Source of the DNA: Escherichia coli
GTDB lineage: Bacteria > Pseudomonadota > Gammaproteobacteria > Enterobacterales > Enterobacteriaceae
Direction: 5' to 3' (one strand)
DNA: 64,000 bases
Assembly (NCBI RefSeq): GCF_030013205.1
Contig: NZ_CP122648.1
The notes below the pieces were generated by a model, which had not been told where the DNA came from, did no database searches, and saw only the letters and a program-made list of their open reading frames with translations. Positions within the stretch are counted from its first letter, which is position 1. Each line of letters starts with the position of its first letter. A program made the translations under genes and the position numbers. Below are positions 12,464-18,968 of the stretch, piece by piece.

Positions 12464-14464
12464 TCATCCTTGTTGCTGAAGCATGGGGAATAATTGTTCG
12501 CAAAGCAAAACACCGTTATTCATTGCTTCTACCCGTGCCTCGCTTTCTGTATTACGAAATTGTGCCAACACATGTGACAGCCGATAAAAACCGACCGCGG
12601 TGAGGTCATTCGCCAGCAACTCTGCCTGACCAATAGCACTCTGTTCCTGATAGCGCCAGCCGTTATGGAGCAGTTGAATAAGTAATGCCTGGCAGCGCAT
12701 CAGCAACTGATGAGCGGTAGACGGCACAGGCAAAACGCTGGCAGAAGGTAGCGGAGCCACAGGCGCAGTTTCTGCGTCCAGCGCCCAGGCGCGGGTTTTT
12801 GTCATCATCACCCGTGGTTCCAGTGTCAATTGCCCCTCTACAAAGCTGACAAAGCCAGAAACCAGACTCACGGGGTCGTCTGTTTGTTGCAACAGAGCTG
12901 CCATGCGTTCAACGGCAAAAGGAGAACAGGCAGATGCTGGAAGGGATAATGTCAGCACATTATCTTCCCCTTCGCCGCTAATGACCTGCGCATCCAGTGT
13001 CTGGCGGCTGCTATCCCAACCGAGCGAAATACACTCCGCTACCGGCAGAATAAATAAGTTATCGACCTGGTTGAGTGGTCGTATGCAGGCGGGGGGACGC
13101 TGGCGTAAATATTCCCGCAAAGCCACAATGCCCGGCTGGCGCAACGGCGCGCTCAACATTTGCCAGGCGTCTGGCGACAGTGGAACAACACTACTCAAGC
13201 GGTTGCGGGTAGCTAACAGCAGCTCGCCATCGGCACTGCGTTTTGCTGCTTGTGAAACAATTTGCCCACCAGCCAGTACGCCAGCCTGAAAACTAAACAG
13301 CCGACGCGTCGCGGCCGGTGAGTTTTCCTGTTCGCTTCTCGGCCAACTACGCGAAAGATGCAAAATACTGCCAGTGTCGGGATCGGTAAACCAGATGCGT
13401 AAACCATACTGCTCAATATCCTGCCAGCAACGCATACCTAAAGACACCAGCCGCAGATGATCAAGCTTTGCTTCTCCGGCAATGCCAGCGCCAACGACCG
13501 TGCGCCACGGCATCGGAGGAACTTCACCAACACTGTCGCGCCGCGCCATCTCTTGTGCGCAATTTAATCGACTGTTTAATGCCGCAAGCTGACGTAAGCA
13601 TTCTCCGGCATGATAGTGGCTGGCGCGGGCGTGGAAGGCATCAACGCTGGCGCGCAGTTGCCGTAGCGATTCACTCACCCATCGCCAGTTGCAGCGTTCC
13701 GCCGCTTGCTGCGCGCGGCTGAAAGCAGCCTCGTAATGAATAAGCGGCTGGCTGATGCCGCCAAGCCATAACGCCTGGCTTAATTGCTGAACATATTGAC
13801 GACACGCGTCGCCCTCATCGTTGGCAAACGGATCGTCAGATGATGTGACGTGTTCGCTGCGCATCTGCCAGATTAAATGAGTAAATTCCGCTTGCTGCGC
13901 TTTGGCCTGGACAAAGGCCTGTACTGCCAGTACGACATGTTCGCAAAGTGTTCCTTCAATACAATCACAGCGTGCGAAACGAATGCTGCTGCGGGAATAA
14001 AAACGTACATCGCTCATCGGTAAGCGGGCAGAGGGAATTTCGCCCGGCGTACAGAACAACTCAATGGTGATACCTTTAGCGACCAGTGCCTGCGCGCGTT
14101 TGCGGGTGGCATCGGGCAGGGTAGCTAGTTCTTCCAGCCAGATTGCCGGATCCCACTCTTCTTCTTTTTCCGTAGGCTGGGTGGTGGCGCAAAGTCGCTG
14201 ATAACTTAAAACCAGCATCACGCGATGGCGGCACATGCCGCTGGCCCCGCAGCTGCACTGAGCCTCTTTCAGTGCCTGACCGTTCGCCAGCTGGGTGCGG
14301 ACACCGTCACTGAAGGTGGCGATTAAAGCGCCGTTCTCATGGCTGATTTCCGGGACGTTGCCATTTTCCAGTTCTTTAAGGCTGCGCTTAACAAAACCGG
14401 CATTGCTTAACGCCGTCAAAGCTTGTGGTGTCAGTTCTAATAATTCCGGCCGTAGTGAATTCAT
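12464..14464 (-). CDS. yehQ: SWIM zinc-finger protein
   Basis: 666-aa ORF; CxCx(n)CxH SWIM-like motif (CSCGASGMCRHRV); ATGA overlap with yehP. Confidence 0.7.
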   Translation of the reverse strand: MNSLRPELLELTPQALTALSNAGFVKRSLKELENGNVPEISHENGALIATFSDGVRTQLANGQALKEAQCSCGASGMCRHRVMLVLSYQRLCATTQPTEKEEEWDPAIWLEELATLPDATRKRAQALVAKGITIELFCTPGEIPSARLPMSDVRFYSRSSIRFARCDCIEGTLCEHVVLAVQAFVQAKAQQAEFTHLIWQMRSEHVTSSDDPFANDEGDACRQYVQQLSQALWLGGISQPLIHYEAAFSRAQQAAERCNWRWVSESLRQLRASVDAFHARASHYHAGECLRQLAALNSRLNCAQEMARRDSVGEVPPMPWRTVVGAGIAGEAKLDHLRLVSLGMRCWQDIEQYGLRIWFTDPDTGSILHLSRSWPRSEQENSPAATRRLFSFQAGVLAGGQIVSQAAKRSADGELLLATRNRLSSVVPLSPDAWQMLSAPLRQPGIVALREYLRQRPPACIRPLNQVDNLFILPVAECISLGWDSSRQTLDAQVISGEGEDNVLTLSLPASACSPFAVERMAALLQQTDDPVSLVSGFVSFVEGQLTLEPRVMMTKTRAWALDAETAPVAPLPSASVLPVPSTAHQLLMRCQALLIQLLHNGWRYQEQSAIGQAELLANDLTAVGFYRLSHVLAQFRNTESEARVEAMNNGVLLCEQLFPMLQQQG

Positions 14465-15597
14465 GACTGAAGATTCTCCGCAAGCCAGGTCGCCAGTTCG
14501 CCCGGCGTCATGGCGGCTATTTGTGCACCGACATTAACCAGTGCCTGGGCCATATCGCGGTCATAGCAAGGTGTTGCGGTGCTATCGAGCGCCGCCAGTC
14601 CCAGCACTTTGACGCCGCTCTGGACACACTTTTTCACCTGATGCGTCAGTAATGATGATGAACCCCCTTCGTAAAAATCGCTCACGAGGATAATGACGCT
14701 TTTCGCTGGTTGTTCAATAAGTTGCCGACCATATTCCATGGCACTGGCGATATTGGTTCCGCCGCCTAATTGCACTTTCATTAATAACTCTACCGGATCG
14801 GCAACGTCTGCCGTGAGATCAACCACGCTGGTGTCAAACGCCACCAGATGGGTACGAATACCGGGTAACTGCCATAAACAGGCCGCCATCACCGCTGAGT
14901 GGATCACCGAGTCCACCATTGATCCGCTTTGATCAACCAGTAAGACCAGTTGCCATTGTTCGCTTTGGCGTTTAATGCGGCTGTTAAAGCGGGGGGATTC
15001 GATATACAACTTGCCGTGTTGCGGGTGCCAGTGTTGCAGGTTGGCGCGCAGAGTACTTTTGAAATCAAAGTTTCGCGCCAGTGGAATAAATGAGCGGCGA
15101 CGGCGATCGCGGACACCAGAAAAAGCCTGACGAACTTCCTTTGCCAGTCGAGCCATAATTTCTTCAACAACCTGGCGTACTATCCGGCGGGCGGCAGCCA
15201 GTACTTCGGGATTCATCAGATGTTTGGTGTGCAAAACGGCGCGTAGCAGGCTTTCAGAAGGCTGCATACGTTCCAGCACGTCGAGATCCGTCACCACATC
15301 TTCAATGCCGTAGCGCAGTACGGCATCGCTTTCCAGCCGCTCGATCACCTGTTGCGGAAACAGCGTGTGAATACTGTTGATCCACTCAGGGGTGGTGAGA
15401 TTTGAGCCACCTAATCCACCAGAGCGTTCACCACGCTGGAGCCGTTCAGGATCGCGCCCATACAGCCACTCCAGCGCGTGGTCTATCTGCCGGGCGTTGT
15501 CATCCAGCCCACAAAGGGGCGTTTCTGCCGCTTCGCCAAGAATTAATCGCCAGCGTTGTAGCTCACGGGTGGTCAGAAGATCGTTCAGTTCAGACAT
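14461..15597 (-). CDS. yehP: VWA-domain protein
   Basis: Start MSELNDLLTTRELQ at 15597 (378 aa); VWA-like region (LVLLVDQSGSM). Confidence 0.75.
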   Translation of the reverse strand: MSELNDLLTTRELQRWRLILGEAAETPLCGLDDNARQIDHALEWLYGRDPERLQRGERSGGLGGSNLTTPEWINSIHTLFPQQVIERLESDAVLRYGIEDVVTDLDVLERMQPSESLLRAVLHTKHLMNPEVLAAARRIVRQVVEEIMARLAKEVRQAFSGVRDRRRRSFIPLARNFDFKSTLRANLQHWHPQHGKLYIESPRFNSRIKRQSEQWQLVLLVDQSGSMVDSVIHSAVMAACLWQLPGIRTHLVAFDTSVVDLTADVADPVELLMKVQLGGGTNIASAMEYGRQLIEQPAKSVIILVSDFYEGGSSSLLTHQVKKCVQSGVKVLGLAALDSTATPCYDRDMAQALVNVGAQIAAMTPGELATWLAENLQS

Positions 15598-15760
15598 GGA
15601 AAACTCCCCAGTGTTGCAGCGATGCCAGTGCCTGCTGTTCGAGTTGTTGATGATGTGCAATGGCTTGTGATGGACAATGCAACGGCATTTGCAGCGCTGA
15701 AACGGGAAGCTGTGCGAGCTGGTAATGCTCAAGCACCTGATGCGCCAGCGTCCCGCGTTC

Positions 15761-17869: not shown

Positions 17870-17879
17870 GCATCTTTCC

Positions 17880-18968
17880 TCACGGCAGGTGGTGGCGAGC
17901 TTGATAATAAGCCTGCCAGTGAGCTTCTTTATGTGTGGCGACGCGCTGTTCGAAGTAACGGCGCAGACGCGCGCGATCTTCTTCGTTATCTTTAACGATG
18001 GTTCCGGCAATACAGTCCACCAGGTCGGCAGGCTCCCCCGCGCGATTCGCTAAAAACCAGGCGCGGACGCCCACTGCGTGGGCCACGTTCACGGCTTCAG
18101 CGGTGGACATAATTGCCGTCAGGGTATCCATTGACGTTTTCTTTTCGCCGTTGGCACGCAGATCGCGGAAGGTGCGGACCAGTAACTCCAGTACCGCGTC
18201 AGGCACTTTATGCGGAATACCGCTATGGGCCAGCAAACGCGCCGAAGCACTGGCGACCAGTTCCAGCTCCTGGGCGAAATCCATAATCGGAAAGACGGTT
18301 TTAAAATCGAAGCGACGCTTTAGCGCGGCACTCATCTCATTGACGCCGCGATCGCGGGTATTGGCAGTGGCAATAATATTAAAGCCTTCCCGCGCATAGA
18401 GCTGACTGGCTTCACCGGTGAGTTCCGGCACCGTCATCACCCTGTCAGAAAGCATACCTAACAGACAGTCTTGTACTTCCAGCGGTGTACGTGTTATCTC
18501 TTCAAAACGGACGATTTTGCCGTCGCGCATTCCCTGGTAAAGCGGGGCAGGGACCAGTGCTTCCGTTGACGGACCATGGTTGATAAGCAGGGCGTAGTTC
18601 CAGCCGTACTTGATTTGATCTTCAGTAGTAGATGCGCCGCCCTGGATGGTTAACCCGGCATCGCCGCTAATAGCGGTTGCCAGTAATTCAGACAGGAGAG
18701 ATTTTGCGGTGCCAGGTTCCCCCACCAACATCAAACCGCGCCCGGTGGCAAGAGTGACTAACATACGTTCGACAGCGGAGGGACTAATCACCACTTTACG
18801 GCTAATATTTTGCGCTCTATCGCCAAGGATAAAAGCACGGGCCGCAGGCAAACTTAACTGCCAACCGGGCGGGCAAGGTGCGTTATCATTTTGTTTTAAT
18901 TTTGCCAGTTCATCGGCGTATAACACAGCAGCAGGCGGACGCTGCAGATGATTATTCTGCGGTGACAT
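17880..18968 (-). CDS. yehL: MoxR-type AAA+ ATPase
   Basis: Start MSPQNNHLQRPP (362 aa); Walker A-like LVGEPGTAKS. Confidence 0.8.
   Translation of the reverse strand: MSPQNNHLQRPPAAVLYADELAKLKQNDNAPCPPGWQLSLPAARAFILGDRAQNISRKVVISPSAVERMLVTLATGRGLMLVGEPGTAKSLLSELLATAISGDAGLTIQGGASTTEDQIKYGWNYALLINHGPSTEALVPAPLYQGMRDGKIVRFEEITRTPLEVQDCLLGMLSDRVMTVPELTGEASQLYAREGFNIIATANTRDRGVNEMSAALKRRFDFKTVFPIMDFAQELELVASASARLLAHSGIPHKVPDAVLELLVRTFRDLRANGEKKTSMDTLTAIMSTAEAVNVAHAVGVRAWFLANRAGEPADLVDCIAGTIVKDNEEDRARLRRYFEQRVATHKEAHWQAYYQARHHLP

Follow-up and report, generated by a model that had tools for sequence, protein, structure and literature searches.

Escherichia coli yehLMPQ belongs to a conserved five-protein MoxR/VWA module with nucleic-acid-type domains and predicted damage-type promoters

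The yehLMPQ operon of Escherichia coli encodes a MoxR-type ATPase (YehL), a large DUF5682 protein (YehM), a VWA protein (YehP) and a SWIM zinc-finger protein (YehQ). We analysed this operon in a stretch of 64,000 nucleotides (nt) of contig NZ_CP122648.1 (assembly GCF_030013205.1), which as a whole is called the window in the following and in which the operon occupies positions 12464 to 18968. A comparison of 80 bacterial loci revealed that the four genes are four fifths of a module of five proteins, which is completed by one or more WGR/DUF4132 proteins, represented in E. coli by molR and yehI. The best reading of the module is a remodelling complex of the MoxR/MIDAS type which is induced by DNA damage, directed to nucleic acids and equipped with a putative hydrolase subunit; to this tentative reading we give somewhat less than an even chance.

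The operon, its lack of a known function, its MoxR subfamily and the SOS box of molR were already known. The initial annotation of the window had seen no established role for these genes, and indeed the literature searched gives yehLMPQ no function. The five-component definition, the fold of YehM, the fusions of YehM with YehP, the probable OB module of YehQ, the association with PafBC motifs and the extent of pseudogenisation were not found in that literature and appear to be new. MoxR/VWA pairs belong to the AAA+ systems that are understood least, and no role has been assigned to the YehL subfamily. The analysis yields a testable hypothesis for a module of E. coli, Klebsiella, Burkholderia, Stenotrophomonas and many actinomycetes, whose unit is five proteins with nucleic-acid-type domains and a putative hydrolase.

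A conserved five-gene module

For the neighbourhood survey one genome per species was scanned and 80 loci were kept, whose open reading frames (ORFs) were classified by phmmer. The loci originate from Enterobacterales, Burkholderiales, Xanthomonadales, Myxococcota and many Actinomycetota. The genes for the homologues of YehL, YehM, YehP and YehQ (in the following L, M, P and Q) are colinear in 74 of the 80 loci, and most of the exceptions are contig ends. Such a check of gene-neighbourhood conservation had been proposed by the initial annotation. The VWA/MIDAS gene in the vicinity of yehL is yehP, two genes downstream, and the order L-M-P is kept in 74 to 78 loci.

A WGR/DUF4132 gene (I) is located directly upstream of the cluster in 67 loci and directly downstream in five, and thus adjoins it in about 72. 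Between one and five I copies are arranged in tandem per locus, and at least one copy bearing a WGR domain is present in 51 loci. In the surroundings of a YehM homologue with 46% identity the genes follow each other tightly in the order WGR+DUF4132, AAA_5, DUF5682, VWA_CoxE and SWIM, with intergenic gaps of 9, 10, -4 and -4 nt. The identical five-gene layout was found on a more distant, actinobacterial-looking contig. At 50% identity the family comprises 3295 clusters (E <= 1e-3).

Previously the operon had been described as flanked by a type I toxin-antitoxin (TA) locus and by WGR/DUF4132 genes. Both are present in the window (TA ORF at 19399-19488, WGR/DUF4132 genes at 19922-27313), but the latter are a conserved component of the module itself, and the operon boundary drawn earlier is therefore wrong in evolutionary terms. 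We also clustered the other flanking ORFs of the 80 loci. None of the families occurs in more than seven genera, and those which recur are generic, namely an ABC ATPase and a short-chain dehydrogenase. The lack of a recurrent neighbour family indicates that the module is self-contained, without a neighbouring client gene.

Some loci show peculiarities. In two loci from Myxococcota (L043, L054) only L-M-P could be identified, and Q and I genes were not detected. A locus from Salinispora (L083) encodes a second VWA-MoxR pair (1876-5154) a few kilobases upstream of the full module. An ORF of 239 amino acids (aa) directly 3' of the SWIM gene (6012-6728 in L047) is found in ten loci from the four genera Lentzea, Microbispora, Acidovorax and Serratia. 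It has no Pfam match and may be a lineage-specific sixth gene.

The locus in the window

The ORF listing and the Pfam matches show that the interval 12464-18968 is filled by four large ORFs, all on the minus strand. Together with the two WGR/DUF4132 genes the features of the module are:

17880-18968, minus strand: yehL, AAA_5 MoxR-family ATPase of the YehL subfamily, 362 aa, intact
15590-17869, minus strand: yehM, DUF5682, full frame of 759 codons, interrupted here to give a product of 702 aa (15764-17869)
15761-15763, minus strand: premature TGA (R703*) in yehM
14461-15597, minus strand: yehP, VWA protein (CoxE-type) with a complete MIDAS motif, 378 aa, intact
12464-14464, minus strand: yehQ, SWIM zinc-finger protein, 666 aa, intact here
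19922-23554, minus strand: yehI, DUF4132 without WGR, 1210 aa, paralogue of molR
23564-27313, minus strand: molR (yehH), WGR + DUF4132, stop at codon 237 (26603-26605)
27321-27340, minus strand: LexA (SOS) box AACTGGATAAAATTACAGGG, just 5' of the molR start

The locus is found in 5413 of 5426 complete E. coli genomes (99.8%) at one fixed core position, and the region 12300-19600 is 100% identical to E. coli ETEC4079. Pfam matches far above threshold confirm the four gene products as described earlier (MoxR-type ATPase, large partner, VWA protein, SWIM protein). The two junctions that had been pointed out are also found as described: yehL and yehM are separated by 10 nt (TGA GGAAAGATGC ATG), and yehP and yehQ are joined by an ATGA overlap.

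Translational coupling of all four genes, which had been assumed as well, does not apply to this strain. Codon 703 of yehM is TGA in the window and CGA in K-12-like and other strains. Translation of yehM stops 166 nt short of the yehP start, whereas intact alleles overlap yehP by 8 nt, and the four-gene coupling therefore fails at the yehM-yehP junction. In the identical genome yehM is annotated by RefSeq as a pseudogene with an internal stop. The truncated product matches DUF5682 (PF18934) with 315 bits over profile positions 1-678 of 727; the intact protein of 759 aa occurs in other strains. The 57 residues which are lost (703-759) include the conserved E704, R705, A709, L713, L751, W754 and G755. 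An exact 61-mer with the R703* lesion is confined to seven of the 5426 genomes, all of them swine-listed and six ETEC-named, and the lesion is therefore recent.

The ATPase YehL and the VWA protein YehP

YehL matches Pfam AAA_5 (PF07728) with 119.3 bits (cutoff 22, E = 1.6e-34). Walker A (GEPGTAKS, 83-90), Walker B (RFEE, 154-157), N203 (sensor 1), R205/R207 and R218/R219 are found without variation in 29 orthologues, which span the range from Proteobacteria to Actinomycetota, and all are present in the window. The nearest solved relatives by sequence are the AAA domains of midasin (8e-10), followed by MoxR 2r44. The YehL subfamily is one of seven MoxR subfamilies, and YehL gave it its name (PMC3893208).

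The match of YehP to Pfam VWA_CoxE reaches 242 bits (cutoff 26.4, E = 5.6e-72). Its MIDAS motif (D222-x-S224-x-S226, T281, D307) is complete and invariant in 29 orthologues. A profile search of the protein structure database (PDB) with YehP gave no match, and the NCBIfam scan assigned no specific family to the module proteins.

Natural fusions of DUF5682 with VWA_CoxE were identified in at least four clusters at 50% identity (P0182, P0230, P0245, P0248). The surroundings of one fusion comprise a cluster AAA_5 gene, the M+P fusion and, at the Q position, an unannotated gene of 643 aa. Such fusions are an argument for YehM and YehP acting together as a single physical unit.

The fold of YehM

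By the shared-fold test, applied to the predicted structure, the N-terminus of YehM groups with the TraB/ChaN/erythromycin-esterase/Tiki superfamily. The relatives are listed with the following values:

TraB family protein, 10.5
ChaN, 9.5
erythromycin-esterase-like protein 2rad, 9.3
HopBA1, 9.0
erythromycin-esterase-like protein 2qgm, 8.4
EreC, 7.6

The remainder of the model is a HEAT/ARM-like solenoid of about 500 residues. Three residues are invariant across the family, namely H11 (in GxRHH), E35 (in LIEGP) and H202 (in CGGxH). The model places H11 after beta1, E35 at the end of beta2 and H202 after the beta strand 194-199. From a reading of the motifs we take them to be the two GxxH motifs and the Glu motif of the superfamily. 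The N-terminus of YehM would accordingly be a TraB/ChaN/erythromycin-esterase fold with an invariant His-Glu-His set, which suggests a putative hydrolase, possibly a protease.

Sequence comparisons gave no further indication of this relationship. The alignment by hhalign of the YehM N-terminus with E. coli YbaP (TraB/GumN) had a probability of 0.16%, which is not significant. Neither hmmsearch of the PDB with the N-terminal profile, which returned no related match, nor the PDB profile search with full YehM, which returned none at all, found a relative, and TraB_PrgY_gumN was not matched in the Pfam scan. DUF5682 is not mentioned in the literature searched.

YehQ and the WGR/DUF4132 proteins

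YehQ matches Pfam SWIM with 32.3 bits (cutoff 19.6, E = 6.9e-8). The first SWIM finger (C70, C72, C78, H80; CxCx5CxH) is invariant in 31 orthologues; the second SWIM-like CxC..CxH motif of E. coli YehQ (166-177) is not conserved elsewhere. A PDB profile search with YehQ gave no match. The AlphaFold2 (AF2) model, with a predicted local confidence score (pLDDT) of 89.7, consists of the SWIM units, two helical bundles and a beta-rich region at about 331-561. The best Foldseek matches of this region are all tandem-OB DNA binders, each aligned over about 230-260 columns. They include HIN1 of p202 with double-stranded DNA (the best, 1.1e-3), LEF-3 and RPA70 DBD-AB with single-stranded DNA (ssDNA), further the HIN domain of MNDA, CST, POT1 and single-stranded DNA-binding proteins, none of them better than E = 1.1e-3. 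These matches are suggestive, and YehQ probably carries tandem OB folds.

YehI matches Pfam DUF4132 (E = 2.2e-45) and shares 35% identity over 386 aa with the product of the WGR+DUF4132 gene directly 5' of the MoxR gene in locus L005. The N-terminus of MolR is a WGR domain (MRHFIFQDEKSHKFWAVEQQG). A search of the PDB with the profile of the I family retrieved the WGR structures 2ra8 (3e-23) and PARP3 (3e-4) and nothing solved besides WGR. The Pfam scan found no CobN/ChlH domain in YehI or MolR. The molR gene of the window, with its internal stop at codon 237, is annotated by RefSeq as a pseudogene.

Some E. coli (L088, L090, L091, L092) have a third tandem DUF4132 paralogue 5' of molR, as in Klebsiella. 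It is missing from the window and from K-12, where metG follows directly.

Damage-type promoters

E. coli molR is listed among the genes with a known SOS box (PMC6590174). In the window this box (AACTGGATAAAATTACAGGG) is intact, and no LexA box was found 5' of yehL. LexA boxes were also searched 5' of the cluster in 37 proteobacterial loci, with the patterns CTGT-N8-ACAG and, relaxed, CTG-N10-CAG. Control by LexA outside Escherichia was not borne out, as only the locus from Intestinirhabdus looked plausible.

For Actinobacteria we used the consensus of promoters controlled by PafBC, which is independent of RecA, tGTCgg(N10)tA(N3)T (PMC8635444). Both strands of 1.55 Mb of actinobacterial loci were scanned with at most one mismatch, and matches were counted in a short interval where the first gene of the cluster begins. 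The motif is present at the cluster start in nine of the 20 evaluable loci, with 0.14 expected (Poisson P about 5e-14). Only 18 matches were found in the whole 1.55 Mb, half of them at cluster starts. A tenth locus, from Streptomyces (L084), has a strict match, and its upstream sequence is too short to be counted. The genera with the motif are Actinomadura, Spirillospora, Actinoplanes, Herbidospora, Catellatospora, Actinokineospora and Streptomyces. The link of the actinobacterial clusters to PafBC is that of a predicted promoter motif, and the mycobacterial PafBC literature searched does not mention the cluster. A Cheo-type box was also considered for the actinomycetes, and nothing convincing was found.

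In Deinococcus the DUF4132 protein DRA0166 and the WGR protein DR2173 increase after mitomycin C, and this increase is lost in a delta-irrE strain (PMC8533742). Their genes have DdrO sites (radiation/desiccation response motif, RDRM) and are upregulated on depletion of DdrO (PMC8533742). Two unrelated damage regulators, LexA and PafBC, are hence predicted to act in two phyla on genes of the module itself, and in a third phylum DdrO acts on the WGR and DUF4132 homologues of Deinococcus.

The split operon of Escherichia

Three further features were noted in the window:

19079-19488, strand not applicable: type I TA insertion, between yehK and yehL
19508-19861, minus strand: yehK-like ORF
12369-12385, minus strand: terminator-like hairpin 3' of yehQ, from a consensus scan only

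The ancestral operon is split in Escherichia between yehI and yehL by yehK and the TA insertion. The latter contains a hydrophobic ORF of 29 aa resembling a type I toxin (MDTLTQKLTVLIAVLELLVALLRLIDLLK; 19399-19488, plus strand). On the opposite strand a promoter-like site (19195-19167) is followed by a hairpin and a T-run (about 19105-19079), which is consistent with a short antisense RNA. The insertion resembles zorO/orzO. The spacer between yehK and yehL measures 306 nt in K-12, 540 nt in the window and about 1240 nt in O157. The TA locus is an Escherichia-specific insertion and no functional partner of the module.

The yehK-like ORF is 117 aa long in the window versus 105 aa in K-12. Its last codons run through a strong terminator hairpin (19533-19510), and RefSeq annotates it as a hypothetical protein.

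A possible role in the DNA damage response

The initial annotation had left open whether the module is chaperone-like or nucleic-acid-associated, and of these alternatives the evidence favours the second. In the reading which we prefer, YehL would form a MoxR-type AAA+ ring, with YehP as its MIDAS-bearing VWA adaptor, which in turn would be physically tied to YehM. YehM would contribute a HEAT-like scaffold and the N-terminal TraB/ChaN/erythromycin-esterase-like domain, a putative hydrolase and possibly a protease. Nucleic acids would be recognised by the WGR/DUF4132 proteins and by YehQ with its SWIM domain and, probably, tandem OB folds. Expressed within the DNA damage response and driven by ATP, the module would act on a protein or complex located on abnormal DNA, which it would remodel, extract or process. 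Observed are the make-up of the module, the order and joint inheritance of its genes, the intact catalytic motifs and the damage-type promoters; a physical complex, binding to nucleic acids, hydrolase activity and the target are postulated.

Several points weigh against this reading. No experiment in the literature addresses the function of YehL, YehM, YehP or YehQ. The kinship of YehM with TraB and Ere is one of fold and motif logic, with non-significant hidden Markov model (HMM) and hhalign comparisons. In E. coli the SOS box is that of molR; between the molR promoter and yehLMPQ lie yehK, a terminator and the TA insertion, and yehLMPQ are furthermore silenced by H-NS (PMC3686432). No LexA-type box was found 5' of the cluster in Burkholderiales or Xanthomonadales, so that damage control is either not universal or uses unknown sites. 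The Deinococcus proteins DRA0166 and DR2173 are homologues, whose genes may or may not be linked to L-M-P-Q. Finally, induction by damage would agree with anti-phage roles as well.

A narrower version, which at present we regard as rather improbable, is that the module frees damaged DNA of proteins trapped on it, for instance in DNA-protein crosslinks or in stalled complexes. Lesions or exposed ssDNA would be located by WGR (MolR) and SWIM/OB (YehQ). The trapped protein would be pulled by the MoxR ring together with the MIDAS adaptor and cleaved by the TraB/Tiki-like domain of YehM. If this were true, the module would be a functional analogue of the eukaryotic pathway of p97/Cdc48 and SPRTN/Wss1, and LexA, PafBC and DdrO, three damage regulators unrelated to each other, would induce it.

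Decay and selection in E. coli

Ten complete E. coli genomes, taken in even steps down the similarity ranking, were examined for nonsense and frameshift lesions. Such lesions are present in yehL, yehM or yehQ in four of the ten and in some gene of the module in six:

window (ETEC4079): yehM R703*
PRO_A-1407: yehM S224* and a frameshift in yehL
O157:H7: yehM Q510*
K-12-like: yehQ stop at codon 615
CUVET19-1969: internal stop in yehI
window, K-12-like and O157:H7: lesions in molR

The three nonsense sites in yehM are mutually independent. With YehM lacking its conserved last 57 residues and molR interrupted, the module is probably disabled or impaired in the window. The broken yehQ and molR of K-12 explain why work with this strain has been uninformative, and many strains besides K-12, including that of the window, carry other lesions of the module.

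The ratio of non-synonymous to synonymous substitutions (dN/dS) among alleles is 0.04 for yehL, 0.08 for yehP, 0.106 for yehQ (codon alignment), 0.13 for yehM and 0.19 for yehI. The synonymous divergence (dS) of the module is 0.11-0.16 versus 0.04-0.12 in flanking genes, among which yehX reaches 0.12. This divergence of the alleles is unusual for a core locus and suggests old allelic lineages or recombination. In a comparison of positions 8000-27000 with other E. coli (L001, L002, L088-L095), most genomes were only about 95% identical to the window.

The strongest of the rival explanations is that the E. coli locus, notably in this strain, is a decaying relic without function, kept because it is silent and cheap. 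The frequency of the lesions, the three distinct nonsense sites in yehM, the double interruption of yehM and molR in the window and the silencing by H-NS all speak for it. Nevertheless we consider it unlikely. Many lineages retain intact alleles (E. coli 1162C and CH4799 are examples of strains with them), dN/dS values of 0.04-0.19 mean purifying selection over the history of the species, and the conservation across phyla would be left unexplained. The yehM lesion of the window is limited to its seven genomes and removes just the C-terminal end, so that partial function is possible. Purifying selection together with repeated loss is the pattern of a conditionally useful function which is repeatedly lost.

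Viral sequences and defence systems

Strong matches to PHROG families raised the question of a phage origin, which was rejected, since these families are E. coli chromosomal genes in prophage calls. The mis-called families are phrog_30700, 33984, 31592, 29006, 20839 and 36295, and the same applies to the IMG/VR locus L097. Both halves of the O157 yehM Q510* pseudogene are included in the PHROG set. The yeh entries of PHROG and IMG/VR are evidently over-extended prophage calls beside the O157 prophage at mlrA/btsS, that is, database contamination.

A role in the defence against phages or mobile elements was also considered. The WGR/DUF4132 paralogues would be diversifying sensors for the nucleic acid of the invader, the MoxR/VWA pair would act as a switch and the YehM hydrolase as effector. 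The distribution of the module is patchy (at least 537 matches among about 100,000 species genomes), its I component is tandemly expanded, dN/dS is highest in yehI, dS is raised across the locus and pseudogenes arose recurrently and independently in E. coli. The H-NS silencing would fit as well, and ssDNA-sensing regulators such as PafBC could also report an infection. However, PADLOC-DB v2 has no match for YehL, YehM, YehP, YehQ, YehI or MolR, and the 139 flanking ORFs from 31 genera gave only scattered generic matches and no defence-island context. Apart from the one host-flank artefact (L097) the module was not found in the 2.9 million viral contigs of IMG/VR. The fixed core position in nearly all E. 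coli genomes, the very strong conservation of YehL, YehP and YehM across phyla and the purifying selection on every gene do not fit either, which makes defence an unlikely explanation, a little more so than the relic.

Comparison with known systems

That the module is a chaperone for maturation or cofactor insertion of the CobS/CobT/CobN, CoxD/CoxE, NorQ/NorD or CbbQ/CbbO type, with MolR/YehI holding the substrate, is suggested by the layout of AAA_5, VWA and a protein of about 1200 aa, by the CoxE-type VWA domain of YehP with its weak match to a cobaltochelatase model, by the weak match of YehL to phage CobS-like "porphyrin biosynthesis" proteins (PHROG) and by the fold which the YehM N-terminus has in common with haem-binding ChaN. 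It is very improbable, because the 80 loci have no conserved client enzyme gene of the kind that accompanies every precedent cited, because the WGR, SWIM and OB-like domains indicate nucleic acids, and because the damage-type promoters fit poorly. A connection with the old "molybdate utilisation" phenotype that gave molR its name, reportedly in Lee et al. 1990, is conceivable; however, molR is a pseudogene in K-12, and the molybdenum-cofactor genes are unchanged alongside the Deinococcus homologues.

The damage-directed remodelling complex which we prefer has partial counterparts in several systems. The MoxR/VWA pairs RavA-ViaA, CbbQ-CbbO, NorQ-NorD, CoxD-CoxE and MoxR proper likewise have an AAA_5 ATPase gene near the gene of a VWA protein with complete MIDAS. 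They are two-gene units beside a client enzyme, whereas the yeh module has no conserved client gene and adds three obligatorily linked large proteins (DUF5682, SWIM/OB-like and WGR/DUF4132) with nucleic-acid-type domains. CobN-CobS-CobT and Mg-chelatase also combine AAA+ and VWA/MIDAS proteins with a third protein of about 1200-1400 residues. In contrast to these, the yeh module has WGR and SWIM domains, no CobN/ChlH domain and no tetrapyrrole context.

The MoxR-vWA-beta-propeller ternary conflict systems are similar in their combination of MoxR and vWA with sensor-like proteins and in their patchy distribution. The yeh cluster differs in that it has no propeller gene and other partners, and the match of YehL to the bpMoxR model (PF20030) stays below the cutoff (18.4 versus 27 bits). 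From the superfamily of TraB/PrgY/GumN, ChaN, erythromycin esterase and Tiki, YehM differs in having no significant profile similarity and in being fused to its long helical solenoid.

Midasin/Rea1 of eukaryotic ribosome assembly is alike in its AAA_5 ring, its MIDAS and its long helical linker or scaffold. The logic of pulling a factor off a nucleoprotein particle would be common to midasin and the yeh module. Midasin acts on ribosome assembly, and nothing suggests a ribosome target for the yeh module. Moreover, midasin is a single polypeptide of 4700-4900 residues (solved chains 4717-4910) with six fused AAA modules, whereas the parts of the yeh module are separate proteins.

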